A DNA stretch of 64,000 nucleotides. Source: Candidatus Magasanikiibacteriota bacterium (GTDB taxonomy: Bacteria > Patescibacteriota > Patescibacteriia > Magasanikbacterales > UBA922). The stretch lies in assembly GCA_018651085.1 (NCBI GenBank), contig JABIEQ010000014.1, positions 161,807-225,806 of the forward strand. The letters are read 5' to 3'. Positions 22,426 through 53,385 of this stretch are shown here, in pieces. Each line of letters opens with the position of its first letter. The first letter of the stretch is position 1. Under the pieces are notes generated by a model, which was not told where the DNA came from, did no database searches, and saw nothing but the letters and a program-made list of their open reading frames with translations. Both the position numbers and the translations under genes were made by a program.

Positions 22426-23151
22426 TCATTTTTTCCAAATACTAATAATATTTTCACCAGTATCGATCTCTACTCTTTTCCCTTTTTTTGCATAATATTG
22501 ATCTTCAACAATAAAGCCAACAGATGAAGCAAGATCATTCAACTCTTCAAGACTATAGCCATAATAGTATCGTTTCGCTAAAATTTCCCCTGGTCCATTT
22601 CGCCAAGGCACAATAAAATTTTTCTGATCTTCTGTTGTATACTTCCCCTTTGTCACTTTATCCTGCACCCATCCATTAAATGCATTCCAGTTCGTCATAA
22701 TAAAACATCCCCCCGGACGAAGGACACGAAACATCTCTTTAATAACTTGTTTTTGTAATTGTGGCGGAATATGACAAATAACGGCCACAGCATACAACGC
22801 ATCAAAAGAATTATCTAAAAAGGAAAGTGTACAAATATCTTCTACAACAAATGTCTTATCCTCATATCTAGAACGAGCAAGAGTAATGAGATTTTCACTT
22901 TGGTCCACTCCTGTATACGAAATATCTTTATCGGAAAAAAGCATAGACAATCGTCCATTCCCACATCCTACGTCTAAAATAGTATCTCCATTTTTAATAA
23001 AACGACCCAATTTTTTCAAATCATCCCACAAATAGTCTCGTGTACTTGAAAAAAGATGAGATACAGCATCATAAGCCTCTTTATTTTGCAGAACATAGCG
23101 ATAATCTTGATTTTTTTTCATATATATGCAATACTTATGTCCGTCTGTCAT
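22426..23151 (-). CDS. Class I SAM-dependent methyltransferase (type 11-like). Start alternatives are 23151 (MTDGHK) and 23121 (MKKNQ).
   Basis: ILDVGCGNGRLSMLF motif I. Flanked on both sides by related inverted-repeat elements. Confidence 0.65.
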   Translation of the reverse strand: MTDGHKYCIYMKKNQDYRYVLQNKEAYDAVSHLFSSTRDYLWDDLKKLGRFIKNGDTILDVGCGNGRLSMLFSDKDISYTGVDQSENLITLARSRYEDKTFVVEDICTLSFLDNSFDALYAVAVICHIPPQLQKQVIKEMFRVLRPGGCFIMTNWNAFNGWVQDKVTKGKYTTEDQKNFIVPWRNGPGEILAKRYYYGYSLEELNDLASSVGFIVEDQYYAKKGKRVEIDTGENIISIWKK

Positions 23152-23237
23152 TGCGACACCCTAAACAAGGCTCTTTCGGTTTTGGGTGATATGAGGTGCT
23201 TTACAACTACTCATTTTCCTAGGGTGTCGCAATGACA
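23146..23237. repeat. Element B: a 92-nt unit closed by a perfect 18-bp terminal inverted repeat (TGTCATTGCGACACCCTA ... TAGGGTGTCGCAATGACA). Its outer ends share GTCATnGCGA with element A.
   Basis: Read directly. The arms overlap the annotated ATGs of both divergent genes. There is an inner hairpin atgag...ctcat. Confidence 0.5.
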
Positions 23238-24953
23238 ACACAGATTCTTATGACTGAAGAAATATTAGAACAAATCATGGCATTTATTGTTGAGAAGCAA
23301 CCTGAAAGTAAGGTTGCTTTTGATGATTTACGAAGAAAAAAATGTAGCGCACTCAAAATATCTCAACCAGCCAACAGAAAATTACTCAAAGCCTATCATA
23401 GACTCATCAAAAAAGGAAGTATCACAGCAGACACACAAATAGAACATTTCCTTAGAAAAGCCAATATTAGAAGCATGTCTGGTATTGCAGTAGTAACTTC
23501 CCTTACAAAACCGTACATGTGCCCAGGAAAATGCGTCTATTGCCCAACAGAGGTACGTATGCCAAAAAGTTACCTTGCATCAGAACCAGCAGCCGCTCGT
23601 TCTATGCGTCTTGATTTTGACCCATATGAACTCATGCAAAAACGTATTGAGATGATGGAAGATAATGGGCATCCTTGTGACAAAATAGAATATATTGTAA
23701 AAGGAGGCACATGGAATGCATACCCTTTAAAATATCAATACTGGTACATCCTTGAATCATTCAGAGCATGTAACAATTTAAAAAGTGACACCCCCTCAAA
23801 AAGAACATGTGAAGACGATTGGAAAGAAAAGACAGTAAAGGATCTTCAAAAAGAAATGCTTATTGAACAAGAAAAAAATGAATCTACAAAATATAGAATT
23901 ATTGGTCTTACTTTAGAAACACGTCCTGATGCCATTTCCCCAAAAACCATTTGGCACATGAGAAATATGGGATGTACTCGAATAGAACTTGGTCTTCAAG
24001 CACCCGACGATAAGATCCTTGACCTTATTCAAAGAGGACATAGTGTCGATCAATTTAGACGAGCAATGCACCTTCTAAGAAAAGCCGGATTTAAAGTAGA
24101 CCTTCATTTCATGCCAGATCTTCCAGGGTCAACACCCGATCACGATGTCGAGATGTATAAAAGTCTTTTTACTGATGAATCACTTAAACCAGACATGGTG
24201 AAAATTTATCCGAATACGGTAATCCCTTCAGCTGAGCTATACGAATGGTATAAAGATGGTAGATACACTCCATATAAAGAAGAAGAACTATTTGAAGCAC
24301 TTCTTCAAATGAAAGAAGTGACTCCTCGATACTGCCGAATATCTCGACTTATTAGGGATATTCCAGAAAATGAAATCATGGCCGGAAATAGAATTACAAA
24401 CCTCAGACAACATCTTGAAACTATTCTTCATAAACGTGGAAAAATATGCCAATGTCTTCGATGCCGAGAAATAGGCAGACAAATGAAACATGTTCCAAAA
24501 GATACCACACCAATACTATTTATTGATGAATATCAAACTGTTGGAGGAAAAGAATTTTTTATTACGTTTGAAGACCCTAAAAGAATTGCCGTATTTGGAT
24601 TTTTACGACTACGTCTTCCTGAAGAAGTACATAAGGACATCAATTGGATATCACAAAAAGAAGATACAAATAATGGAAAAGAACTCTTTTCACTTCTTCC
24701 AGAAATAAAAGATTGTGCCTTCATAAGAGAACTCCATACCTACGGCCAGCTTATTGGTATTGGACAAAAAGGAAACAGCGATGCTTCTCAACACAAAGGC
24801 CTCGGGAAAAGACTTATCAAAGCAGCTGAAGATATTGTACAAAAACATGGGTACACAAAATGTGCAGTCATTTCAGGTGTGGGTGTAAAAGGTTATTACG
24901 AAAAGTTAGACTATAAAAAAGAAGGTACCTACGTTGTAAAACATTTCAATTAA
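23232..24953 (+). CDS. Elp3-family radical SAM / GNAT acetyltransferase (tRNA wobble-uridine modification enzyme homolog).
   Basis: Radical-SAM cluster motif MCPGKCVYCP. The C-terminal GNAT region FIRELHTYGQLIGIG...GLGKRLI matches Elp3 architecture. Length 573 aa. Confidence 0.8.
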   Translation: MTTQILMTEEILEQIMAFIVEKQPESKVAFDDLRRKKCSALKISQPANRKLLKAYHRLIKKGSITADTQIEHFLRKANIRSMSGIAVVTSLTKPYMCPGKCVYCPTEVRMPKSYLASEPAAARSMRLDFDPYELMQKRIEMMEDNGHPCDKIEYIVKGGTWNAYPLKYQYWYILESFRACNNLKSDTPSKRTCEDDWKEKTVKDLQKEMLIEQEKNESTKYRIIGLTLETRPDAISPKTIWHMRNMGCTRIELGLQAPDDKILDLIQRGHSVDQFRRAMHLLRKAGFKVDLHFMPDLPGSTPDHDVEMYKSLFTDESLKPDMVKIYPNTVIPSAELYEWYKDGRYTPYKEEELFEALLQMKEVTPRYCRISRLIRDIPENEIMAGNRITNLRQHLETILHKRGKICQCLRCREIGRQMKHVPKDTTPILFIDEYQTVGGKEFFITFEDPKRIAVFGFLRLRLPEEVHKDINWISQKEDTNNGKELFSLLPEIKDCAFIRELHTYGQLIGIGQKGNSDASQHKGLGKRLIKAAEDIVQKHGYTKCAVISGVGVKGYYEKLDYKKEGTYVVKHFN

Positions 24954-30264: not shown

Positions 30265-30612
30265 ATGAGAACACTCTTTCGTTGGCTTATAAATACCCTT
30301 GTTCTTCTCGCTATTGCCTACTACCTTCCTGGTATTGGGGTTGAAGGATTCTATGCCGCTCTTGTCACAGCATTTTTCCTTGGTCTTATAAATGCCATTA
30401 TTCGTCCCCTTATCATTGTTCTTACCCTTCCAATTACTATTGTGACGCTAGGGTTATTTACTTTTATAATCAATGCTCTTTTATTCTGGTTTGTAAGTAG
30501 CTTTGTAAAAGGATTTGAAGTAGCAGGATTTTGGCCAGCATTTTTCGGCGCATTGATTATGAGTATTACAAGTTGGATCACAAGTACGCTACTTATACAA
30601 AAGACTCGATAA
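30265..30612 (+). CDS. DUF360-like small membrane protein (holin-like 4-TM family).
   Basis: MRTLFRWLINTLVLLAIAYYLPGI... with four hydrophobic helices. Confidence 0.5.
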   Translation: MRTLFRWLINTLVLLAIAYYLPGIGVEGFYAALVTAFFLGLINAIIRPLIIVLTLPITIVTLGLFTFIINALLFWFVSSFVKGFEVAGFWPAFFGALIMSITSWITSTLLIQKTR

Positions 30613-30614
30613 AT

Positions 30615-31313
30615 ATGAAACAACAACGAAAAATTATGTCTGTGGGAGGATCAATCATTATCCCAAAAACAGGCTTTGATATTCCCTTTCTTAAAAAATT
30701 TAGAACTCTCATTCTTCAACAAGTAAAACAAGGAAAAACATTTATCCTTGTTATTGGTGGTGGTGGCACATGTAGAAAGTATCAAGACGCTGCAAAAGGA
30801 GTGACAAAAATGACCGATAATGATCTCCATTGGATTGGTATTCACACCACAATCTTTAATGCACAGTTTGTTCGCATGCTTTTTAAAGAACATGCATATA
30901 AAGACGTTATCACAGATCCTACAAAAAAAATAAAAACAAATAAACCCATCATTATTGCAGCAGGATGGAAACCAGGATGTTCAACTGATACTGATGCAGT
31001 ACTTCTTGCAAAGACCTATAACGTAAAACACATATTAAATCTTTCAAATATCAAATACGCCTACGATAAAGATCCAAACAAATTTAAAAATGCAAAAAAA
31101 ATAGAGCGCATGGATTGGCTCACCTTTAGAAAACAAGTTGTTGGAATGAAAGCAGAATTTGGTCCTGGAGGAAATGCTCCATTTGACCCAGTGGCAAGTA
31201 AAATGGCACACAAGCAAGATATTCAAGTAGACATCCTACAAGGAACAAACTTAAAAGAAGTAAGAAACGCCATTAACTGTAAAAAATTCATAGGGACAAC
31301 CATTCACCCATAA
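30615..31313 (+). CDS. Amino-acid-kinase-fold protein, UMP kinase-like (archaeal-type PyrH-like).
   Basis: MSVGGSIIIP, VIGGGGTCRKY and GWKPGCSTDTDAVLLA motifs. Confidence 0.5.
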   Translation: MKQQRKIMSVGGSIIIPKTGFDIPFLKKFRTLILQQVKQGKTFILVIGGGGTCRKYQDAAKGVTKMTDNDLHWIGIHTTIFNAQFVRMLFKEHAYKDVITDPTKKIKTNKPIIIAAGWKPGCSTDTDAVLLAKTYNVKHILNLSNIKYAYDKDPNKFKNAKKIERMDWLTFRKQVVGMKAEFGPGGNAPFDPVASKMAHKQDIQVDILQGTNLKEVRNAINCKKFIGTTIHP

Positions 31314-31325
31314 ACAAAAAAGGAT

Positions 31326-32042
31326 CTAATAAGATCCTTTTTTTCTTTGTTTTCGAAGTTTCAATATAATAAGAAAAAACTCCACAATATCTTTTTTAGA
31401 CAACTTTGATTTCCCTTCTTTTCTGTCAACAAACGTTACAGGAACTTCTTTTACAAAAAATCCTTTTTGCTCAATGCGAAATAGGACTTCTTCTTGAAAC
31501 GCATAGCCATTACTTTTAATCGACGGAAGATCAATTGCTTCCAACACATGACGCTTAAAACAACGGAAACCAGCAGTAACATCCTTTGTTTTAAAACGAA
31601 GACATAATCGAGAAAAAAACATTGCCCCAGCACTCATACCTTTACGAATACTCCCCCACCCAACAATCTTTCCTCCCATAATTTTTCGTGAACCAATAGC
31701 CACATCAAATCTATCCATGTGAGATACCAGTCGAGAAATGTCATCAGGATCATGAGAAAAATCCGCATCCATCTGAATCACACAATCAGCTCCTAACGAT
31801 AACGCCTTTTGAAACCCTTCAATATACGCTGTTCCTAATCCAAGCTTCCCAGCGCGAGAAATAAGATGCACTGATGCATGTTCCTTCATAACATCTCGGA
31901 CAATAGAAGATGTCCCGTCTGGTGAATTATCATCAACAACAACAATAGACACATTATCTATTGGAAGGCGCACAAGATGGCTCAATAATCGAGCAATATT
32001 GTCTTTTTCATTATAAGTTGGGGTAACAATCACGTTTTTCAT
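31326..32042 (-). CDS. Polyprenol-phosphate mannosyltransferase-like GT2 (DPM1-like).
   Basis: VIVTPTYNEKDNIARLL...IVVVDDNSPDGT...VIQMDADFSHDP. Confidence 0.75.
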   Translation of the reverse strand: MKNVIVTPTYNEKDNIARLLSHLVRLPIDNVSIVVVDDNSPDGTSSIVRDVMKEHASVHLISRAGKLGLGTAYIEGFQKALSLGADCVIQMDADFSHDPDDISRLVSHMDRFDVAIGSRKIMGGKIVGWGSIRKGMSAGAMFFSRLCLRFKTKDVTAGFRCFKRHVLEAIDLPSIKSNGYAFQEEVLFRIEQKGFFVKEVPVTFVDRKEGKSKLSKKDIVEFFLIILKLRKQRKKGSY

Positions 32043-32215
32043 ACGCGCCCATTGTAACATACCTCATAAAAAAACAAAATCCCTAGCATATTACTAGAGA
32101 TGTTTGTCATCGATCACTACCTTCTTACTATAAAAAAGTACTGATCGATGAGCTCCACGGGGGTATTGCTCAATCGACCGCGCGTTTGCGCAGCTCGAGA
32201 GCACCTCCCGGGGAG

Positions 32216-32968
32216 CTAATTCCCCTTTGTTTTGTTCACCAAGAATTCCTTCTTCGAGACCCTGGCCAAGAGGGTCCAACGGTTTCCGCCCTCTTTCCCC
32301 CAAGAGAACTTTCGGTCCCAGAGAGAAAGGTCACCATAAGCGTCTTGCCTCACCTGAAAGTAACGGTAATATCCGCTACCCAACGGAACCAACGCCCCTT
32401 GGCTCGAGAAGATGGCCTTGCTAAGACCATCGCAGACACTCCCCGTTGCACCTTCATAGCGCAACATAGTTGGCGTCTCCATAATCCATGCGTAGCAGCT
32501 CCGAGTGTCAAACACCCAGACCGACTTGTCGCAAGAGTCGTCGAGACCGTCCTTATCGAGGTCCTGATTAAGATTCCTCTCCATAGGGCAGCTGTCTCGG
32601 TTGTTGGCAAGGCCATCACCGTCGATGTCGTCGTCGCAGGCATCTCCAAGACCATCCACGTCGAGATCTTCTTGATCGGGGTTGGCCACCTTGCGGCAGT
32701 TGTCCCAATCATCGGAGATACCGTCCTCGTCGAGGTCCTCGCAGACGTCTCCCAAAGGGAGCCCCCCGGAGTCACGTTGCATCTGATTGCGGATGTTGGG
32801 ACAGTTATCCCACTTGTCAGGGATGGTGTCGCCGTCGGTGTCCTTCTCCACTTGGACAATGAGGCTCTTCGATGCCGACGGCAGGGTCAAAGTGGCCGGC
32901 GTCGTCGGGAGAGTGCACCCGGACAAGACGATAGCACACGAAAAGATCAGAACAGTTGCGGTACGCAT
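32216..32968 (-). CDS. GC-rich lipoprotein with thrombospondin type 3 (Ca-binding) repeats.
   Basis: Lipobox LSGC. DTDGDTIPDKWDNCP and DEDGISDDWDNC repeats. A GGAGG RBS lies 8 nt upstream of the ATG. GC content is far above the surrounding sequence. Confidence 0.6.
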   Translation of the reverse strand: MRTATVLIFSCAIVLSGCTLPTTPATLTLPSASKSLIVQVEKDTDGDTIPDKWDNCPNIRNQMQRDSGGLPLGDVCEDLDEDGISDDWDNCRKVANPDQEDLDVDGLGDACDDDIDGDGLANNRDSCPMERNLNQDLDKDGLDDSCDKSVWVFDTRSCYAWIMETPTMLRYEGATGSVCDGLSKAIFSSQGALVPLGSGYYRYFQVRQDAYGDLSLWDRKFSWGKEGGNRWTLLARVSKKEFLVNKTKGN

Positions 32969-33330
32969 GGCATAAACCTCCAAGGCTTGCCGGTGTGTGA
33001 ACAAATAAGGGCTAATTACTACACAAAGAAAAAATATGTACTATTTATTCTGTACGTAGTAACCAACTGATAGAATGAACATTTCTCACTATCCCCTTTT
33101 ATAAAAAAGAAATACTGGGCAATGGGGCTGCACACATAAAGCGCGCAGCCCAGTTTCCATAAATACGACATGTATCTGGAACCCCTACTAGGCAAGCCGT
33201 TCGGGGTATTTGTTTTTCTGTCATCTCGCTTTTGCGAGGCATCTTCTTTTTATCGCTAGAATTCCGAGGAAGAAGGTCTCCTCATATAGAAATCACTCTC
33301 ACGGACTATCCGCGAGAACATATCGTAAGC

Positions 33331-34374
33331 TCAATGCTTCGCGATACTCGCCTCCCTGTCGGGGAAGTCGTTCGTCACGCCGAGACCGGTTTCGAGAACA
33401 CTCTGACCATCGAGGGCCAAAACATCCTCACCGTTCTCTTGAAGTTCACCACCAGTGCGGTGAACGGCGTAACGATTCTCGTCGGAGACATCAGAATCAT
33501 TACCGAACTTCACCAAGGATACCATCATGGCCTTCTTACCACCCGTAGACACGTTCCACGTGCCAACGGGACGGTTGTCCTGGCAGCGGCCAGAGACAGC
33601 GAATTCGGCATCGAGGTAGCGGACCACCTCGAGAACCTGGCCATTGGCCTGGGCCTTGTCGCACGACACCATGTCCACGACTCGACGCTCAACACTCAAA
33701 GGAAGCTTGGGCGTCGGGAGACTCGCGAGGAGCTCCGCGTCACCCTCTTCCTCGAAGACGTTGAGGTCGTTGAAGTTGAAGGTTTTCTCCGAAGCCTTCT
33801 TGGCCACAGGAGCAACACCTCGAGTGGACGCGTATGCCTGTGCTTCACGCTCGGCATGAACCTCGGCTTTAGCGCTCACACTCGTAAGGGAAGTGATCGG
33901 CGCCTCGATAACCCGCTTACGCTGCTCGCGCTTCGGGGTATTCTTGACGCTAACTTTCCACCAGTTCGTGACGAGCCGATTTTTCTTATCGGTCGTCATC
34001 TGAGCCGGCCGACCTCGACCACGCTGCGTCTTCTTGACAGCAGCAGGACGAGGATCCGAATCGAAAGTATCTCGATGCCCAAGGGCTTCTGCCAAGAACG
34101 TCTCGATTTCTTCAGCAGAGGGCTCTTGGTTAAGCGCCTCATACACATCGAACTTTTTCGCGGCGGGCGGATCAGCGGCCCGGCGGGCACGCTCACGGCG
34201 GAGTCGCGACTCTTCGAGCCACGCCCCCTCGTTGCGCTTCACGCTTCCACCCTGACTGATCAGATCTCCATCGGTCACACTGAAGGAAGGTCCTCCAGCG
34301 ATCGCTGACGAGATAAAGCTCAGGTTCAGGGCGATGACGATGGCCACGAGGAGAGCGATGTTCGGCTTGTTCAT
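33331..34374 (-). CDS. GC-rich secreted hypothetical protein (347 aa) with a signal peptide.
   Basis: Signal peptide MNKPNIALLVAIVIALNLSFISSAIA. Strong RBS AAGGAGGAATTACC immediately upstream of the ATG. No recognisable domain. Confidence 0.55.
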   Translation of the reverse strand: MNKPNIALLVAIVIALNLSFISSAIAGGPSFSVTDGDLISQGGSVKRNEGAWLEESRLRRERARRAADPPAAKKFDVYEALNQEPSAEEIETFLAEALGHRDTFDSDPRPAAVKKTQRGRGRPAQMTTDKKNRLVTNWWKVSVKNTPKREQRKRVIEAPITSLTSVSAKAEVHAEREAQAYASTRGVAPVAKKASEKTFNFNDLNVFEEEGDAELLASLPTPKLPLSVERRVVDMVSCDKAQANGQVLEVVRYLDAEFAVSGRCQDNRPVGTWNVSTGGKKAMMVSLVKFGNDSDVSDENRYAVHRTGGELQENGEDVLALDGQSVLETGLGVTNDFPDREASIAKH

Positions 34375-34454
34375 GGTAATTCCTCCTTAAGGAATCTGTA
34401 GTAGGATGCGCAGCTCAAATGGCGCTACCCTACAAAGGTTTGTTACTCTCACAA

Positions 34455-34503
34455 CTCTAGACTCATATAGAATGAGTACTACTCAACCTATATGAGTCTA
34501 GAG
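34455..34503. repeat. Perfect 16-bp inverted-repeat hairpin (CTCTAGACTCATATAG / CTATATGAGTCTAGAG) with a 17-nt loop, at the right boundary of GC-rich island 1.
   Basis: Read directly. Confidence 0.6.
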
Positions 34504-34764
34504 AGGAATAACAGAAAAACAAAATGTAAAGAGCAAACGCAACTGATAGATTCATCTATCATGGAGAAACAGGGAATATCCATGCTCTTCCATGCGGACG
34601 AATTCGGGAAATATTACTACTTTGTAACAAAAGACTATACCATAAAAAAGCAACGTTGTCAATACACACAACAAAAATAATGGCTTTGTTAAACCATTAT
34701 TTTTAAACTACGCTCAACGTAGCAAAAAACAAAATTACATTTTGTTAAATAAGTTTATACAATT

Positions 34765-35637
34765 TTATTGTGGTAGTTTTATATATTTTCTTCCTTTAAT
34801 AATAAGCCCATCCTTGGCTAATTTAAGCACAATTTCATTAAACCGTATACTATCTATATCAGAAAAACGACTCTGTAAAGAATGAATCAACACCCTTTTT
34901 TCACCCCGAAGTATATCCACTATTTGCCCCCTATAATATCGATCAGTATCTTTAAATCGAACAGATTGTTTTTTCTTCTTCTTTTTAAATACCTTACTAG
35001 TAAGTATCTTTGGATATGCTTTACAATGTTCCTGAAGTGGACAAATTCCACATTTTGGTACTCTTGTAAGACAAATTGTAGACCCAAAATCCATTAATGC
35101 CTGATTCCAATCATATGCCCGACACTTAGAAAATACTTCTTCAGCTGTAATTAATAAATCCTTATCAGACACATCTTTTATTCCATAATACACTCGCGTA
35201 TAAAACCGTCTATGATTTGTATCCATCATTGGTACTTTTTTTTCAAATGCAAAAGACATAACAGCACGAGCAGTATAATCTCCTACCCCAGGGAGTGTTA
35301 TAAGTTCTTTTAAAGTATCAGGAAACACACCAGAAAATTCATCACACACAACTTTCGCTGCGCGTTGTAAAAATAATGCTCGCCTATTATACCCAAGCCC
35401 TTTCCACATACGAATAACATCAGCAGTCTTTGCATTAGCAAGAACCTTCACCGTTGGAAATGCACGTAAAAACGCGTGATACTTTGGTATCACGCGTTCC
35501 ACCTGGGTTTGCTGAAGCATTATTTCACTTACTAAAATAGTATATGGATCTCTTGTATGCCGCCAAGGAAGATCTCGTTGATACTTTTTATACCAACGCA
35601 AAAGTCGTCGTCGTACAACACGTATCACATCATCCAT
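34765..35637 (-). CDS. mutY: A/G-specific adenine DNA glycosylase (MutY family, HhH-GPD with 4Fe-4S loop).
   Basis: HhH-GPD region LPGVGDYTARAV. Cluster motif CLTRVPKCGICPLQEHC. Confidence 0.8.
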   Translation of the reverse strand: MDDVIRVVRRRLLRWYKKYQRDLPWRHTRDPYTILVSEIMLQQTQVERVIPKYHAFLRAFPTVKVLANAKTADVIRMWKGLGYNRRALFLQRAAKVVCDEFSGVFPDTLKELITLPGVGDYTARAVMSFAFEKKVPMMDTNHRRFYTRVYYGIKDVSDKDLLITAEEVFSKCRAYDWNQALMDFGSTICLTRVPKCGICPLQEHCKAYPKILTSKVFKKKKKKQSVRFKDTDRYYRGQIVDILRGEKRVLIHSLQSRFSDIDSIRFNEIVLKLAKDGLIIKGRKYIKLPQ

Positions 35638-35639
35638 AA

Positions 35640-37050
35640 CTACGCTGTTTCTCGTTTATAATAATACACACTATAAAACAACACAAATAAGACAAACGAG
35701 CCAATCGCCCCAAACTGCACAATCCGCTTTAGCATGTTTGAATCAGCCTGAAGTGGATTTTCATCTTCACCATCAATTCGCCCATCGTCGTCAGTGTCAG
35801 CTCTATTAGGATCAGTACCGCTATCCACTTCTTCCTTATCATTTAATCCATCAGCGTCAGTATCAGCCAATAATGGATCAGTACCAATTTCTTCTTCTTC
35901 AATGTCACTTAGTCCATCTCCATCGTCATCAGTGTCAACATTATTTCCTTCCCCATCTAAATCAAAATCAGCAGATTCCGTTGCATCCATTGGAAATAAA
36001 TCAAGTAAATCGTTTACTCCATCACCATCAGTATCTACTAACAAAGGATCAGTACCCTTATCCTTTTCTTCTTTATCACTCAATCCATCTTCATCTGTAT
36101 CAGCTTTCTTAGGATCCGTCCCATCTTTAATTTCAACATTATCGTCAAGTCCATCGCCATCAGTGTCAGACGTCGTAGGATCTAACCCTTGATCAAACTC
36201 ATCTTTATCAGAAATACCATCACCATCAGAGTCAACTTTTGTTGGATCAGTTCCCCTATCACGCTCTTTTCCGTCAGTAATGCCATCCCCATCTGTATCA
36301 CTGTTTAATGGATCACTCCCAAGACCTTTTTCATCAATATCACTAAGCCCATCGTTATCGTCATCAGGATCAGCATTATCACCAATGTCGTCTCCATCAG
36401 CATCTGCCCACTCTCCTCCATTTGTTGGAAATACATCAACATTGTCTTTATACCCATCTCCATCCGTATCTTCTTTTACGGGGTCCGTTCCACGATCTAC
36501 TTCTTCTTTATCACTAAGTCCATCACCATCTGTATCAGACACTAATGAATTTGTCCCTAAATCTTTTTCTCTTGAATCTAAAAGTCCATCATTATCGTCA
36601 TCAGGATCATGTATATCTCCAACGTCATCTCCATCAGTATCTAGATCAATAGTATATGTCCTTTCAGATTCAAATCCAGCAACTTCTTCACTAGAAATAG
36701 ACACAACACTTCCATCCCCATTTTTTGCAATAAAATTTGTAAGCCGTGCAGTAAAAGATCCTTCGCCAGAAGGTAATGTATATTCTATCCAAACTTGCTT
36801 TGCTCCTTCTAAAGGAAGATCAACAACACGAGTAGTCCCAATTAAAGATCCATTATTTAAAAATTCAACATCAGCAGAAAAAAAAGCAAAGTCATTATTT
36901 ACAACGACTGTATAAATTTTCACTATGTCTCCAGCAAAGGCATCATTATCAGAAAACCATACGCCTTGACTTACAAAACTAAACGTTGCAAATACTGGAG
37001 TAACAAGAAAAAAAAGAAAAAAACAAGAAACAAGGAAAGAAATCTTTTTC
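35640..37050 (-). CDS. Surface protein with about 14 thrombospondin type 3 repeats, a signal peptide and a C-terminal TM anchor.
   Basis: MKKISFLVSCFFLFFLVTPVFA. Iterated D(T/S)DGDG(L/I)SD...GTDP units. C-terminal FGAIGSFVLFVLFYSVYYY. Confidence 0.7.
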
Positions 37051-37171
37051 ATAATATAAAAAACTACACCTATAGTGTAGCAAATTGGCGTAAAAAAGAA
37101 AACAATGTGGTAATCCAAGTCGTCGGGGTGCACAAAGGCACCCTGACGATAATGGAAGTGAACACCCTCGC

Positions 37172-37465
37172 CTACTTCCCCACACAAGCGAGGGATCGGC
37201 CCTTACGCTCCAGAGTGTCGGGGCATTCAGTCTTACCGCCATCCTGATAAAAGAAACTTTCGTATCCTTTCACCGAGATGCCTTCAGCACAGTGGTACCA
37301 CCGGGTGGTATCATTTTTGTTCATCGTCACTTGCGGATAACTGTCATCCGCACACCTGACAACGATGTGCCCTTGAACAAATCCCATGAAGACTTGCGCC
37401 CCAATGAATAGCGCAAATGCCCCGAGAAAAAAAGCCGTTACCCTCTGAAATAGTGTCACTTCCAA
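37172..37465 (-). CDS. Small GC-rich secreted/membrane-anchored Cys-containing hypothetical protein. Possible TTG start.
   Basis: 97-aa ORF in a roughly 50% GC patch. Hydrophobic N-terminus and five Cys. An AAGGGGG RBS-like sequence lies upstream. Confidence 0.3.
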   Translation of the reverse strand: MEVTLFQRVTAFFLGAFALFIGAQVFMGFVQGHIVVRCADDSYPQVTMNKNDTTRWYHCAEGISVKGYESFFYQDGGKTECPDTLERKGRSLACVGK

Positions 37466-37566
37466 GTCCCCCTTCGTTGTTTCTTAAACCGATCACATGC
37501 TACCAAAAAATGATAGAATGATATCAATTTAGGAATACAGTACCTTAACAAAAAAAAATGATATTG

Positions 37567-38382
37567 TCAATATAAAGATAGGATATCCCCTATTTCAGAT
37601 GTTTCAAATACTGCTATACCAAGCTGACTCAAGCGCCATAGCACACGAGAAGATGGATGCCCATAACTATTTTTTTTTCCTACAGAGATAACCCCTATAT
37701 GGGGAGAGACCGCTTTTAAAAAAGAAACAATAGAAGATGTTTGACTACCATGATGGCCAATATGCAAAATATCTGATGCAAGCTCACTACCGTACTGAAA
37801 TGCGAGATACTCTTCTAATTCTTCTTCCGCATCCCCTGTTATAAGAATATTTGTTCCTGACACAAAGAATTTCATAACAATAGATTCATTATTTTTTCCT
37901 TCAAAAAGAGAAGCATCTTGCCTCAAGGAATAATTTGGATACAAAAAAATAATTGACTCTTCTAAAAAAGACCATGTTTGATATTCTTCAATGATATACA
38001 TTTCAACATCTTTTTCTTCTAACGTATGAAGTAACACTTGCCACATAGCAGAATCACTTTGTGTTCCATTATACACAAAGGTTCCTACATCAAATCGATG
38101 AAGCACATCAATACACCCTCCATAATGATCAAGATCAAGATGCGTGACAATCACATAATCAATATATTTATCATAAAAAGGCATATGCCTCCCAAGTCCT
38201 TCAAGAACCGTAGCATCAATACCACAATCAACAAGAGCTTGTGTTCCATCCTCAAATGTAAACAAACTTGCATCCCCTTGCCCCACATCTAAAAAAACAA
38301 ACGGAGGGACAATACCATCAATAAAAAACACATACAACAATAAAACACAGATACATGAGAAAACAACATACCACTTTTTCAT
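37567..38382 (-). CDS. ComEC C-terminal metallo-beta-lactamase-domain protein.
   Basis: FLDVGQGDASLF and VIVTHLDLDHYGG motifs. Its start ATG overlaps the stop of the upstream ComEC gene (ATGA). Confidence 0.7.
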   Translation of the reverse strand: MKKWYVVFSCICVLLLYVFFIDGIVPPFVFLDVGQGDASLFTFEDGTQALVDCGIDATVLEGLGRHMPFYDKYIDYVIVTHLDLDHYGGCIDVLHRFDVGTFVYNGTQSDSAMWQVLLHTLEEKDVEMYIIEEYQTWSFLEESIIFLYPNYSLRQDASLFEGKNNESIVMKFFVSGTNILITGDAEEELEEYLAFQYGSELASDILHIGHHGSQTSSIVSFLKAVSPHIGVISVGKKNSYGHPSSRVLWRLSQLGIAVFETSEIGDILSLY

Positions 38383-47486: not shown

Positions 47487-47639
47487 ATAGTAATAATAAA
47501 ATAAATGACTGATTCCACCGTACTATGTTTTTAGGTAAAAATCAAGACCTCCATTAGATTGCCATAAAGAAATATTTTTGTTACCATCGGCAAGTAACTT
47601 TTTAGTTAAAGGAGGACATACAGCTGAATTTCCATATAT

Positions 47640-47692
47640 TCTGAGAGACAATGTATTTTATCATTACATGGTGCATTACATTGTCTCTCAGA
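47640..47692. repeat. Perfect 16-bp inverted-repeat hairpin (TCTGAGAGACAATGTA / TACATTGTCTCTCAGA) with a 21-nt loop, at the left boundary of GC-rich island 2.
   Basis: Read directly. Confidence 0.6.
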
Positions 47693-47767
47693 AAAATAGA
47701 CGGAACTGATCATTGAAGGGTAATAGCACCCTAAGAAAATCAAATTCCAAAAATTACGGAGGAAGCG

Positions 47768-49006
47768 GTGTCGCACGGAAAAGAACATCACGGTTGGCGG
47801 GGGTTCGTCGTCCAAAGCGACGACAAGGTCCCCTGGATCCTCTGGGGCGTACTCATAGGAATGTTTCTCTTCACAACGGGAGAACTGCTGGGAATGCATT
47901 TCCAGCATTACTTCCACCACGAGATCCCCCATTTCCTCACGAACCACATGGGGATGCTCTACTTCTTCGCCTTTTTGGGTCTTGAGGTCACCATCAAAAA
48001 ACTCAAGGCCGCGGGGAGGTTCGTCATATTTGCCACGATTGGCGGTATGATCATCCCGCCACTCTGCGCCTACGCACTGACCCAGAACTTCTACATCGCT
48101 CTTGGGGCTTGTGCCACAGACGTGGCCTTCAGCCTCGGCGCGTGGAAGATGGCAAAGGGTACGCGAGAAGACGGCCTCAAGTTTGTCTACACGGCCCTTT
48201 TGATCCTCGCTGTTGGCGACGATCTTGGCGGCGTGATGATGCTCGCGGCCTTCTACGCCACGGCAGTGACGGGAGGATGGTTGATCTTCGGACTCATGAA
48301 CATGATCTTCTCCTACGCCTGCGGGGAAAAAGGAGAGTTCACCGTCAAGTGGGTTCCCATGAACCTCTCAGGAGAAGAACTCACTGAGTGGAAGGCAACG
48401 AAGTTCAACGTGCTTATTGAGAAGAAGTGGTTCTGGATCCTGTTTGCAGCCGCGAACTGTGGAATCATGTGGGCTGCTGGCGTCGAATGGATTCTCGGCG
48501 CTTGCCTCATCTTCATCTTGGCCCCTGACAAGGTCAAGGAGGAGTTGATCCACATGATGAAACCCTTCATTCCGATCATCCTGTTCTTCTTTGGTGGCGT
48601 GAACGGCGCTATCAACGTGTTCGACCTCAACAACTGGGGATGGATCACTGCGGGTTCCGCTATCGGTGGCTTTGGCGGAAAAATCATCGGCATCTTTGGA
48701 GGAGGGATGCTTGGAAGATGGCAAACCAAGAAAAAGGACCCCAACAACGACTACGCGAACATCCCGACAAGAAGAATCGCGGCCTTGGCCCTGTTTGGCG
48801 CAGCCAACGGGACCGTTGCCATCTTCTTTGTCAGCATGGGAGCCGCCCGTGGTTTCATCGAGGCTGGAGACGCCAAGCAAGCAATTCTCGGCTACTTCCT
48901 AACCGTGGGGATTGTCTACGGGCTAACCTTCATCGGGAATCTCGTTGATTTTTTCGGTGTGAAAGCCGAAGAGATCGAACTCAACAGTCAACCAGCCACG
49001 ACGTAA
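47768..49006 (+). CDS. nhaA: Na+/H+ antiporter NhaA (GC-rich, probably foreign). GTG start.
   Basis: GACATDVAFSLGAWKMAKG and LLILAVGDDLGGVMMLAAFY match NhaA signature regions. A GGAGG RBS lies 6 nt upstream. High GC. Confidence 0.8.
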   Translation: MSHGKEHHGWRGFVVQSDDKVPWILWGVLIGMFLFTTGELLGMHFQHYFHHEIPHFLTNHMGMLYFFAFLGLEVTIKKLKAAGRFVIFATIGGMIIPPLCAYALTQNFYIALGACATDVAFSLGAWKMAKGTREDGLKFVYTALLILAVGDDLGGVMMLAAFYATAVTGGWLIFGLMNMIFSYACGEKGEFTVKWVPMNLSGEELTEWKATKFNVLIEKKWFWILFAAANCGIMWAAGVEWILGACLIFILAPDKVKEELIHMMKPFIPIILFFFGGVNGAINVFDLNNWGWITAGSAIGGFGGKIIGIFGGGMLGRWQTKKKDPNNDYANIPTRRIAALALFGAANGTVAIFFVSMGAARGFIEAGDAKQAILGYFLTVGIVYGLTFIGNLVDFFGVKAEEIELNSQPATT

Positions 49007-49112
49007 ACGAAGCAAGGGAGGGAGCAAGATGCTCCACTTCTAAAAAAAGTCTGATATGGAAATTCAGCCCCTTGCCTTGATACCAAAAACTCTTTGATAT
49101 CAAGGTAAGTAA

Positions 49113-53220: not shown

Positions 53221-53292
53221 GTCGCCATCGTCTAGTGGCTAGGACACCGGGTTCTCATCCCGGCAACAGGAGTTCGATTCTCCTTGGCGATA
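53221..53292 (+). tRNA. tRNA-Glu (anticodon CUC).
   Basis: Manual fold. 7-bp acceptor stem (1-72 is a G-U wobble). D-arm GUCU/GGAC. Anticodon stem CCGGG/CCCGG with loop UUCUCAU. 4-nt variable loop. T-arm AGGAG-UUCGAUU-CUCCU. Discriminator A. CCA is not encoded. Confidence 0.8.
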
Positions 53293-53311
53293 CATAGACA
53301 AATTTACAAAT

Positions 53312-53385
53312 GTCAGAGTAGCTCAGTTGGTAAGAGCGTAGGATTCATAACCCTAAGGTCGGCGGTTCAATTCCGCCCTCTGACA
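53312..53385 (+). tRNA. tRNA with anticodon CAU: elongator Met or lysidine-type Ile2. It is not an initiator, since it lacks the 3xGC anticodon stem.
   Basis: Manual fold. Perfect 7-bp acceptor GUCAGAG/CUCUGAC. D-arm GCUC/GAGC. Anticodon loop UUCAUAA. T-arm GGCGG-UUCAAUU-CCGCC. Discriminator A. Confidence 0.8.

Follow-up and report, generated by a model that had tools for sequence, protein, structure and literature searches.

A probably horizontally acquired two-gene islet without mobility genes in a Candidatus Magasanikbacteria chromosome

Genes and signals of the GC-rich islet

The window (the whole 64,000-nucleotide stretch that was analysed) contains a GC-rich islet, island 1, located between a mutY-like gene and a holin/amino-acid-kinase gene pair. 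The islet carries two genes on the minus strand, here called geneA and geneB, with the following features in and around them:

31326-32060, minus strand: GT2 glycosyltransferase gene (Pfam PF00535, E 2e-29; GC3 0.27, native-like)
32079-32101, minus strand: terminator-like hairpin, then UUUUGUUUUUUU (terminator scan; fold -14.7 kcal/mol, z -5.3)
32107-32151, minus strand: left-edge imperfect palindrome, 3' of geneA (inverted repeat I2; fold -26 kcal/mol, z -5.5)
32216-32968, minus strand: geneA, 250-aa lipoprotein (predicted lipidation) with three thrombospondin type-3 Ca-binding repeats (aa 41-150) and a beta-rich C-terminal domain of ~100 aa
32977-32981, minus strand: Shine-Dalgarno (SD) sequence GGAGG of geneA, 8 nt before the ATG (anti-SD duplex -10.5 kcal/mol)
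32982-33122, minus strand: AT-rich leader/promoter region of geneA (GC down to 0.17; CTTTTTTATAAAA at 33097-33109; imperfect leader hairpin)
33123-33150, minus strand: GC-rich hairpin, then after a gap a U-rich run (fold -24.7 kcal/mol, z -4.2)
33209-33224, minus strand: 3' arm of the inverted repeat bracketing geneB (inverted repeat I3, 15/16 complementary; sense RNA reads AUGACAGAAAAACAAA)
33294-33320, minus strand: terminator-like hairpin directly after the geneB stop codon (terminator scan; fold -14.4 kcal/mol, z -2.9)
33331-34374, minus strand: geneB, SD-led ORF for a 347-aa orphan with an N-terminal signal peptide or anchor
34382-34386, minus strand: SD sequence GGAGG of geneB, 7 nt before the ATG (anti-SD duplex -10.8 kcal/mol)
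34455-34503, minus strand: leader hairpin of geneB, 16-bp perfect stem plus inner stem (inverted repeat I1; fold -38.6 kcal/mol, z -8.9)
34508-34523, minus strand: 5' arm of the geneB bracket, -149 to -134 from the ATG, abutting the leader hairpin
34634-34662, minus strand: sigma-70-like promoter match, the best for geneB (TTGACA-17-TATAGT plus upstream TG, 11/12), in AT-rich DNA

An earlier note on this DNA had described an abrupt jump to above 55% GC. The jump is real for both genes (GC 0.555 in geneA and 0.578 in geneB, background 0.366), but the islet is not one continuous block: the 362-bp spacer between the genes (32969-33330) has a GC of 0.42 and includes a 30-bp trough at 0.17. The switch in composition is abrupt and coincides with the gene boundaries, GC-rich DNA being nearly coextensive with each ORF and its SD, and the promoter regions are AT-rich and native-looking. 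The islet was an outlier in all three compositional profiles that the note had proposed: GC, GC3 (0.685 in geneA and 0.649 in geneB, the 45 AT-rich genes of the window all lying at 0.13-0.31) and tetranucleotide usage (correlation with the whole window 0.05-0.11 at 32-34 kb, median 0.87). Relative synonymous codon usage (RSCU) is anticorrelated with that of native genes (r ~ -0.3), and geneA and geneB are each other's closest match (r 0.65). The proteins also deviate: the mean GARP/FYMINK ratio of native genes is 0.72, whereas geneB reaches 1.49, more than any other of the 48 genes, and geneA 1.14. Composition-normalised tetranucleotide correlation among the GC-rich genes did not discriminate a common source. 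The long antisense ORFs mentioned in the note are there as well (294 and 358 aa).

GeneA matched PF02412 in three stretches with 72 bits (Pfam gathering threshold 25). AF2 modelled the repeats with a pLDDT of 80-96, and Foldseek matched them in the PDB to 1yo8, 3fby and 1ux6 (E 1e-6 to 1e-8), the type-3 repeats of thrombospondin-2 and COMP. The signal peptide, as read in the translation, ends in the lipobox MRTATVLIFSCAIVLSGC (L-S-G-C), fitting the pattern [LVI][ASTVI][GAS]C. The annotation as a TSP3-repeat lipoprotein is thus borne out: the identity of the Ca2+-binding thrombospondin type-3 repeats is established, and membrane anchoring by lipidation is predicted. Like the bacterial TSP3 surface proteins (Myxococcus MtsC, OmpA-TSP3), geneA combines three DxDxDGxxDxxDNCP-type repeats with an envelope-targeting signal, and the repeats match those of eukaryotic thrombospondin-2 and COMP structurally. 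Unlike MtsC and OmpA-TSP3, it has neither a MYXO-CTERM nor an OmpA domain and instead carries the lipobox and a unique C-terminal domain of ~100 aa, which found no match in Pfam (E up to 10), PHROGs, PDB sequences or plasmid/phage tblastn. An assignment as MtsC equivalog (NF047638) was rejected, the score being 99.4 bits against an NCBIfam cutoff of 350 and confined to the repeat region.

GeneB begins with a well-formed signal peptide and an A-I-A signal-peptidase site (AxA type) in the translation, in agreement with its earlier description as a 347-aa signal-peptide protein. The predicted layout comprises helices at about aa 46-98, a charged middle of low confidence and beta-strands at aa 259-322; the AF2 model made without an alignment had a mean pLDDT of 43, unusable for fold search. 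Searches of 5.8 billion and 1.84 billion proteins or representatives returned only geneB itself, and Pfam (E up to 10), PHROGs, PDB sequences and plasmid/phage tblastn gave no match. Is geneB a gene at all? Its reading frame could be open by chance in DNA of high GC, or it could be a pseudogene in decay, leaving geneA as the only real acquired gene. The missing homologs, the low AF2 confidence, an antisense ORF of equal length and a frameshift near codon 70 in one population all point that way. Yet the ATG follows a canonical SD at optimal spacing, the signal peptide and its AxA site are well formed, and promoter-like and terminator-like sites of its own are present. In addition, a codon model preferred the geneB frame over all five others (log-likelihood ratio +27; antisense ORF -5), and 15 contigs carry identical, unbroken copies of the ORF. 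We consider a non-functional geneB very unlikely.

Both GGAGG sequences are present as the earlier note had reported, with spacers of 8 and 7 nt, and its view that native genes lack an SD was upheld. Among 48 window genes, GGAGG precedes only geneA, geneB and a third GC-rich gene at 47768, which is NhaA-like and bears the same signature; it precedes none of the 45 AT-rich genes, where GAGG and AGGA each occur once. SD-independent translation initiation is known in Bacteroidota. The anti-SD motif of 16S rRNA was undetected in about half of Parcubacteria (PMC9297842), and such a subgroup fits the SD-less native genes found here; the difference from SD-independent lineages is that a handful of genes in this genome have perfect SDs. 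The host ribosome may use them if its 16S rRNA retains CCUCC; otherwise they would be relics of the donor.

The hairpins described at the two edges were also recovered. On the left, the 10-bp inverted repeat lies at 32107-32151 (-26 kcal/mol), with a perfect outer stem CATCGATCA.../...TGATCGATG and a loop that holds the motif CTTTTTTATAGTA (32126-32138). On the right, the 16-bp hairpin at 34455-34503 (-38.6 kcal/mol) has no other copy in the window; an Rfam search of 31900-37700 gave nothing above threshold, and sub-threshold matches of this hairpin to plant miRNA precursors were taken as chance. The hairpin at 32079-32101, 18 nt upstream of the GT2 start, is probably the terminator of geneA, and that at 33123-33150 is probably the final terminator of the geneB transcript. 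Since promoter-like and terminator-like sites bracket each gene, geneA and geneB are predicted to be two separate transcription units rather than one block.

Junctions, relatives and the insertion site

Could the islet be an artefact of assembly or binning, with GC-rich DNA of another organism stitched into an AT-rich contig? The earlier note had allowed for such a chimera. The composition indeed switches abruptly where genes begin and end, and two low-coverage assemblies yield contigs with geneB alone. Against this, the junctions are 100% identical in GCA_018653445.1, GCA_018672955.1, JGI 3300072015, Logan SRR3725354 and several ENA assemblies, in all at least six assemblies obtained from different samples and with different assemblers (SPAdes NODE_ contigs, MEGAHIT k141 contigs, JGI, Logan), and both are the same in contigs of 227, 298, 453, 60, 20 and 4 kb. 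Among 23 contigs with the exact mutY-like protein, the islet is present in each that reaches far enough, and an island-free context was found in none. Two strain variants with private indels also keep the islet and its junctions: L096 has a 4-nt frameshift in geneB at about codon 70, and L006 has a 27-nt deletion that removes the geneA lipobox (SGCTLPTTP), plus one SNP in the flank. These indels are the sole differences within the islet, and the surrounding DNA is otherwise identical. An artefact is thus effectively refuted, and the island genes are dispensable or variable among strains.

In L007-L011, L013 and L022, seven relatives with conserved synteny, the orthologous site lacks the islet: mutY is followed directly by holin, amino-acid-kinase and PLD genes with a mutY-to-holin gap of 15-90 nt (about 690 nt in one). 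In a scan of 20-kb loci from the relatives, no gene stood out in GC3 to a comparable degree. Together with the foreign composition, codon usage and amino-acid composition, the empty site supports horizontal acquisition, as the earlier note had proposed. The holin/amino-acid-kinase pair is inverted here and the GT2 gene is also new, being undetected within +/-10 kb of mutY in the seven relatives; the gene either belongs to the rearranged or inserted segment or arrived earlier. Because even the nearest available relatives are distant (mutY identity 46-58%), the insertion can be dated only loosely.

The +/-10 kb around the islet contain no integrase or transposase Pfam family, as had been noted before, and the only tRNA genes of the window lie at 53221-53385. 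A ComEC gene is located 4 kb away. An A-rich direct repeat of 11-12 nt, (A/G)AAAAACAAAAT, is found at either edge (32069-32080 and 34514-34525), with a third copy at 34724-34735; it is of low complexity and overlaps terminator U-runs.

Where did the DNA come from? No donor or close homolog of geneB, or of the non-repeat half of geneA, appeared in about 15 billion proteins, so that transfer is deduced rather than traced. A protein search for hits in high-GC phyla had been suggested. For geneA it listed Myxococcota and 'Deltaproteobacteria' among the named matches, all of which cover the repeats only; for geneB it gave no match. The proposed high-GC donor or host is conjectural: geneB has no homolog, geneA matches in its repeats only, and the named relatives of the third GC-rich gene are other candidate-phyla-radiation (CPR) lineages, one genome having a GC of 0.59. 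The label 'recent', which drew only on the lack of amelioration, is conjectural as well. That argument is weakened by the NhaA-like gene, whose GC3 is still an outlier in two Peribacter-like genomes that are syntenic but deeply diverged, so that a gene of high GC may have arrived long ago.

Inverted repeats around geneB and the NhaA-like gene

GeneB is flanked by complementary arms with a 13-nt exact core (P = 6/3000 dinucleotide shuffles), extending to 16 nt when the only mismatch, which the sense strand reads as a U.G wobble, is included. The NhaA-like gene is bracketed by a perfect 15-nt repeat (P = 0/3000), and these two brackets rank highest among 50 window genes; geneA has no significant one. 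We relied on this exact-match shuffle test because duplexfold z-scores of upstream versus downstream flanks were uninformative, long gapped duplexes dominating the energies. The 5' arms of geneB and the NhaA-like gene are equally far from the start codon, and a long hairpin comes next in each. Bracket and leader hairpin form an architecture that the two genes share.

Known mRNAs with paired 5' and 3' ends include hok (tac/fbi), H. pylori aapA1 and S. aureus icaR, and RNase III processing stems bracket rRNAs. As in the hok, icaR and rRNA-stem systems, the complementary arms here flank the coding sequence, one ahead of the SD and the other past the stop codon, and could close a panhandle. Unlike in hok, aapA1, icaR and the rRNA stems, the loop would be 1.3-1.5 kb and enclose a full-size protein gene, and the arms are clear of the SD.

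Several types of element were considered for the repeats and rejected: (i) an invertible segment, since the short contigs pass the arms by 18-26 nt in chromosomal orientation; (ii) an integron gene cassette, as there is no integrase and the hairpins, inspected by eye, lack GTTRRRY / RYYYAAC cores and are mutually unrelated; and (iii) an IS- or MITE-like element, for which the 15/16 inverted repeat is present but a target-site duplication, a transposase or a second copy in the window is not.

Alternatively, geneB and perhaps each GC-rich gene may be the cargo of a non-autonomous mobile cassette. Short terminal inverted repeats, with hairpins in subterminal position, would mark its ends, and the enzyme acting on it in trans would come from another locus or from the donor. 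The repeats around geneB and the NhaA-like gene, the hairpins just inside the 5' arm and the A-rich direct repeat at either islet edge would suit such ends, and the extent of two short contigs (33183-34541 and 33183-34515) is almost that of the geneB unit. However, the 18-26 nt by which both contigs overshoot the arms are chromosomal in sequence and orientation and thus give no evidence of a second context or circle. Moreover, no transposase or integrase is present, the DNA beside the arms shows no target-site duplication, and neither arm (allowing up to one mismatch for those of geneB) nor hairpin has a second copy in the window. Finally, arms and hairpins differ wholly between the units, and a shared transposase is not expected to recognise such ends. 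A mobile cassette is therefore unlikely, though slightly less so than a non-functional geneB.

The bracket recurs at homologous NhaA-like loci in three other CPR genomes, where arm sequences differ between genomes and are complementary within each. Another explanation is that some CPR envelope genes form a special class of long standing, kept GC-rich and SD-led and with mRNA ends able to pair as a panhandle. Their composition would reflect selection on the gene or mRNA rather than recent arrival, and the class would amount to a distinct expression/stability regime in genomes whose ordinary genes start without SD. Several features of the NhaA-like gene speak for it: (i) the homologs are GC3 outliers in five of seven other contigs, the exceptions being L093, which matches its own GC-rich genome, and L094; (ii) most homologs keep an SD-like motif and their neighbours have none; (iii) the protein is 49% identical in the syntenic L087 and L089, inside the range of flanking orthologs (30-82%); and (iv) in the window, its amino-acid composition is native-like, and hence its excess GC is mostly synonymous. 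Brackets are also enriched among GC3 outliers (6/11 versus 1/124 other genes, Fisher 4e-7), with a threshold chosen post hoc and homologous loci that are non-independent, and the 5' arms and hairpins of geneB and the NhaA-like gene are similarly placed. A metagenome scan with the NhaA-like alignment added a single locus, a duplicate of that in L089, and RNAalifold on an alignment of seven leaders found no consensus structure, as the leaders are too diverged. The islet itself speaks against such a class, as geneA and geneB are missing from all seven relatives and have a foreign amino-acid composition, and geneA has no significant bracket. Three of the seven NhaA-like loci tested also show none by the strict score, and other envelope genes of the window (TSP3_bac, holin, ComEC) are AT-rich without SD. 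We regard a special gene class as improbable for island 1, though less so than a mobile cassette.

Origin and significance of the islet

The genes of island 1 are real, inserted and foreign in composition. In our reading, to which we assign a probability of about 0.7, two foreign genes have truly been inserted and become fixed in the chromosome of one Candidatus Magasanikbacteria species, as an islet of accessory surface genes that were probably taken up as DNA. Each gene would act as its own unit, with an AT-rich promoter region, a long hairpin leader, a GGAGG that arrived with the gene and a terminator. Because no mobility gene is present and a ComEC gene lies nearby, entry was probably by DNA uptake, which illegitimate recombination would have followed. 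GeneA and the predicted secreted or anchored orphan geneB most likely serve an episymbiotic CPR cell as accessory proteins of its surface and may function in adhesion or host contact.

Further observations count against this reading. A raw donor fragment is not obviously expected to be trimmed to SD and ORF with AT-rich promoters. Moreover, geneB is frameshifted in one strain, and expression and function of the island genes are predicted.

Islets and single-gene transfers are reported to be common in Patescibacteria, mostly between members of the group (PMC12455944), which fits the CPR relatives of the third GC-rich gene. Island 1 likewise adds accessory genes of atypical composition to a streamlined CPR chromosome, and the published islets are similarly sporadic among relatives, many of them with no identifiable donor. 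It differs from them in having no integrase, tRNA site or prophage, and in that the foreign DNA is trimmed to single SD-led genes in an SD-free context, with geneB bracketed. Our verdict is a horizontally acquired islet without mobility genes, a fairly ordinary gene transfer with one structural quirk.

Beyond island 1, we tentatively propose, as a conjecture with the odds against it, that SD-less CPR genomes harbour exchangeable single-gene cassettes for envelope and transport proteins that persist for long as compositional outliers. Candidates may be the NhaA-like gene, an NhaB gene and geneB, possibly with geneA and a 97-aa ORF; the hallmarks may be codons GC-rich relative to the host, a canonical SD, a leader hairpin at about -130 to -70 and a bracketing inverted repeat of 12-16 nt. 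Because the repeat varies between loci yet stays complementary within each locus, selection for pairing would explain it better than the relic of one transposase, and this points to an mRNA panhandle or processing stem, or to a single-stranded-DNA recombination intermediate. If true, the recurring combination of GC-rich gene, SD, leader hairpin and bracket would be a previously undescribed type of CPR cassette or mRNA regulatory design, and it would warn against taking high GC as proof of recent transfer.

Island 1 provides a clean, assembly-independent case of gene gain in a candidate-phyla-radiation bacterium, and the acquired functions are cell-surface proteins, a class expected to matter in host attachment. 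Its SD-led foreign genes among SD-less native ones constitute a natural test of whether these ribosomes still use SD.

Composition of the island and its two genes

The island consists of geneA, which encodes a TSP3-repeat lipoprotein, and geneB, which encodes a 347-aa signal-peptide protein annotated at NCBI as HN726_02560 in a metagenome-assembled genome of Candidatus Magasanikbacteria (CPR/Patescibacteria). Both are far richer in GC than the window background (0.555 for geneA and 0.578 for geneB versus 0.366), and their GC3 values of 0.685 and 0.649 compare with 0.13–0.31 across the full set of 45 AT-rich genes in the window. In 1-kb tetranucleotide profiles, the island correlated with the window average at r = 0.05–0.11 (median elsewhere, 0.87), and relative synonymous codon usage was anticorrelated between island and native genes (r ~ −0.3). 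The GC-rich stretches match almost exactly the extent of each Shine-Dalgarno (SD) sequence plus its ORF; between the two genes, GC drops to 0.42 over a spacer of 362 bp and to 0.17 in a 30-bp trough within it. Thus, the earlier note was right about the GC-richness of the two genes but not about a single block. The amino-acid composition of both proteins is also of the GC type: among 48 genes, geneB has the highest GARP/FYMINK (1.49) and geneA the third highest (1.14), against a native mean of 0.72, which points to prolonged evolution in a genome richer in GC.

A scan for SD sequences in the 25 nt preceding each of 48 ORFs in the window found GGAGG before exactly three: geneA, geneB and a third GC-rich gene, which encodes an NhaA-like protein. 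Predicted anti-SD duplex energies of these three sites were −9.5 to −10.8 kcal/mol, and the AT-rich genes offered just one GAGG and one AGGA. The proposed contrast between island genes with an SD and native genes without one therefore stands, and it extends to the surroundings of the NhaA-like gene (island 2), since that gene also carries GGAGG. According to published work, roughly half of Parcubacteria show no detected anti-SD motif in their 16S rRNA (PMC9297842).

Features of the island locus in order of transcription (minus strand), and the SD of the NhaA-like gene
34765, minus: stop of mutY, followed by an AT-rich hairpin (34673-34704)
34662-34634, minus: strong promoter match upstream of geneB, TTGACA-17-(TG)TATAGT
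34523-34508, minus: 5' arm of the geneB inverted repeat
34503-34455, minus: 49-nt hairpin, −38.6 kcal/mol, z −8.9, ~68 nt before the geneB SD
34382-34386, minus: geneB SD, GGAGG, 7-nt spacer
33331-34374, minus: geneB
33320-33294, minus: terminator-like hairpin after geneB
33224-33209, minus: 3' arm of the geneB inverted repeat
33150-33123, minus: GC hairpin, followed by the AT-rich geneA promoter region
32977-32981, minus: geneA SD, GGAGG, 8-nt spacer
32216-32968, minus: geneA
32151-32107, minus: palindrome 3' of geneA
32101-32079, minus: terminator with U-run
32060, minus: start of the GT2 glycosyltransferase gene
47758-47762, plus: SD of the NhaA-like gene, GGAGG

Both structures that had been noticed at the edges, the palindrome-like repeat on the left and the hairpin on the right, were recovered at these positions. 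The window has nine copies of the motif CTTTTTTAT(R)(R)TA (1.4 expected), three of which precede GT2 (32126-32138), geneA (33097-33109) and geneB (34638-34650) on the coding strand. It is probably a T-rich promoter spacer together with a −10 box.

The lipobox L-S-G-C closes the signal peptide of the 250-aa geneA protein, which also contains three thrombospondin type-3 repeats (PF02412, 72 bits; cutoff, 25). Its AlphaFold model reaches a pLDDT of 80–96 over the repeats and matches the type-3 repeats of thrombospondin-2, thrombospondin-1 and COMP (E 1e-6 to 1e-8). Similarity to its 148 database relatives is confined to the repeats; the best named matches are from Myxococcota and 'Deltaproteobacteria', but they give no donor because repeat similarity cannot identify one. 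No homolog was found for the beta-rich C-terminal domain (~100 aa), and an assignment of geneA as MtsC equivalog was rejected (99 versus 350 bits). Two genes from geneA lies a native AT-rich gene for a TSP3_bac repeat protein (PF18884; 35640-37052, minus strand), whose repeats are weakly similar to those of the lipoprotein (E 0.001).

The geneB protein is a strict orphan by sequence: it retrieved itself alone, both from a set of 5.8 billion clustered proteins and when phmmer was run exhaustively against 1.84 billion representatives, and Pfam, PHROG, PDB, plasmid and phage searches gave zero matches. Its AlphaFold model is poor (mean pLDDT 43). We take geneB to be a gene because it has an optimally spaced SD and ATG, an N-terminal signal peptide with an A-I-A site, promoter-like and terminator-like sites of its own, and a score of +27 (−5 for the antisense ORF) in a codon model for which the two Pfam-verified GC-rich genes served as training set.

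Insertion site and reality of the assembly

Scanning species-representative genomes with the mutY-like protein yielded seven relatives (46–58% identity) with conserved synteny, in the order ComEC-MBL-(TSP3_bac)-MutY-holin-AAK-PLD-MgsA. The gap from MutY to holin is 15–90 nt in these relatives, except for ~690 nt in one of them (L011); in the window, geneB, geneA and the GT2 gene lie between MutY and the holin-AAK pair. The island is an insertion. Comparable GC3 outliers were absent from the 20-kb loci of the relatives. In composition the GT2 gene resembles native genes (GC3 0.27), and so it either arrived earlier or is native and was relocated. The holin_4_2/amino-acid-kinase pair (30265-31313) runs in the opposite orientation to that in all seven syntenic relatives and joins its surroundings very tightly, with 12 nt between it and the GT2 stop. 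As had been noted, there is no integrase or transposase at the island: none of these families, nor any phage family, occurs within ±10 kb. The competence gene ComEC lies 4 kb away.

An unannotated 97-aa ORF (37172-37465, minus strand) shows a weaker composition signal than the island genes (GC 0.50, GC3 0.55), and has a hydrophobic N-terminus, six Cys and an SD-like GAAGGGGGA upstream. It is probably another small insertion, because the gap that holds it, between the MBL and TSP3_bac genes, measures 514 nt in the window and 95–157 nt in the relatives.

Could the island be an assembly chimera? The window is 100% identical to contig JABIAE010000012.1 of GCA_018653445.1 over the 20 kb compared. 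Among contigs read from NCBI (two MAGs), JGI 3300072015 (453 kb), ENA (one of them 298 kb long, with 15x coverage) and Logan SRR3725354, 15 carry the exact geneB protein and 23 the exact mutY-like protein of the flank. Both junctions were identical in every contig that reaches them, whatever the source, and none of the geneB-bearing or mutY-like-bearing contigs offered an island-free context. Two indel variants, L006 and L096, also share the junctions of the window. The chimera raised in the earlier note is thus refuted, and the GC-rich island is real.

The differences seen inside the island in these two strains fall only in geneA and geneB. In L006, whose DNA is otherwise identical except for a single SNP in the flank, a 27-nt in-frame deletion (window 32898-32924) removes SGCTLPTTP, including the lipobox cysteine of geneA. 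L096 is identical over 12.9 kb apart from one lost copy of a tandem CGCC (34161-34164), a 4-nt loss that shifts the geneB frame at about codon 70. The two genes may be dispensable and beginning to decay, or else be variable surface genes.

Two short ENA contigs, L004 (33183-34541) and L005 (33183-34515), carry geneB only and have a common left end. Three of their four ends run 18–26 nt past the repeat bracketing geneB, and the right end of L005 falls short of this, stopping within the 34508-34523 arm by 8 nt. These contigs are likely due to a shared read set or to GC bias combined with low coverage.

The NhaA-like gene and the age of the transfer

Was the acquisition recent? The second GC-rich island of the window (47623-49109) holds a single gene (47768-49006, plus strand; GC 0.54, GC3 0.71) for a divergent NhaA-like antiporter (PF06965) of native-like amino-acid composition. 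Its 27 relatives are 26–51% identical, and those with names belong to the CPR lineages Ca. Altimarinota and Ca. Peribacter. In five other CPR-like contigs (L087-L091), the homologs are among the top-GC3 genes of their neighbourhood.

GC3 of NhaA-like homologs and of their neighbours
L087, 10001-11248: 0.68; neighbours 0.36-0.51
L088, 5683-6924: 0.65; neighbours 0.31-0.48
L089, 10001-11275: 0.61; neighbours 0.25-0.53
L090, 6851-8056: 0.68; neighbours 0.53-0.66
L091, 3101-4327: 0.73; neighbours 0.18-0.35

In most contigs the homologs keep an SD-like motif and their neighbours have none. In L093 (8001-9287), the homolog has the composition of its genome (GC 0.59) and carries GAAGGAGGTGG, with no SD on neighbouring genes; the most distant homolog examined (L094, 37% identity, genome GC 0.42) is no GC3 outlier. 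Two other outliers stand near homologs: an NhaB gene in L090 (5002-6453, GC3 0.83) and a Peptidase_M23 gene in L091 (5979-7037, GC3 0.71 versus 0.18–0.35).

Around the gene, synteny is conserved between L087 and L089, whose NhaA-like proteins are 49% identical, inside the 30–82% range of the flanking orthologs, which suggests vertical co-inheritance with long-persisting GC-richness. The window protein is roughly equidistant (37–49%) from all other homologs, and so the gene has no close donor. Because the homologs remain GC-rich across CPR contigs, high GC3 and an SD are by themselves no proof of recent arrival. Of the recent acquisition from a high-GC donor or host proposed in the earlier note, acquisition holds, but "recent" and "high-GC host" are unproven, given the lasting GC-richness and CPR relatives of the NhaA-like family. 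GC-richer CPR lineages are a plausible source of the GC-rich genes; HGT islets and single-gene transfers are reported to be abundant in Patescibacteria, chiefly among Patescibacteria themselves (PMC12455944).

Bracketing repeats and shared architecture

The geneB and NhaA-like units are each bracketed by an inverted repeat with one arm upstream and the other downstream of the gene. The geneB repeat is 16 nt long and complementary at 15 of 16 positions, the sole mismatch being a U.G wobble on the sense strand; that of the NhaA-like gene is a perfect 15-nt repeat (47623-47637 / 49054-49068), with a 55-nt hairpin (47639-47693) just inside its 5' arm, the same layout as in the geneB unit. In both, the long hairpin directly adjoins the 5' arm, which occupies about −131 to −149 relative to the start codon; after the hairpin come ~65 nt of leader and the SD. 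Elsewhere in the window, the divergent genes 22426-23151 (minus) and 23232-24953 (plus) have an identical 18-nt sequence over their start codons, TAGGGTGTCGCA-ATGACA, whose two copies form an inverted repeat spanning the 80-nt intergenic region.

Upstream/downstream complementarity among 50 window genes scored 15 for the NhaA-like gene, 13 for geneB and at most 10 for all remaining genes. In 3000 dinucleotide shuffles per gene, such brackets arose in 6 for geneB and in 0 for the window NhaA-like gene. Homologs gave 0/3000 (L088), 2/3000 (L090) and 12/3000 (L091), and the L090 NhaB gene, with a 13-nt repeat, 1/3000. Brackets were not significant for geneA and the 97-aa ORF, for the L091 Peptidase_M23 gene or, by the strict score, for the NhaA-like loci of L087, L089 and L093. 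Among 135 genes, scores of at least 12 were found in 6 of 11 GC3 outliers versus 1 of 124 others (Fisher 4e-7; the threshold is post hoc and the homologs are non-independent). Since the arms differ between loci yet remain complementary within each, selection for pairing, for example in a putative mRNA panhandle or processing stem, would fit better than a shared transposase end.

Taken together, the islet is best explained as horizontally acquired DNA without mobility genes that has brought two genes for surface proteins, each transcribed on its own, into a CPR genome. The recurrent combination of GC-richness, SD, leader hairpin and bracket, common to the geneB and NhaA-like units, and the long-term GC-richness of the NhaA-like family are the parts of the finding that deserve attention.
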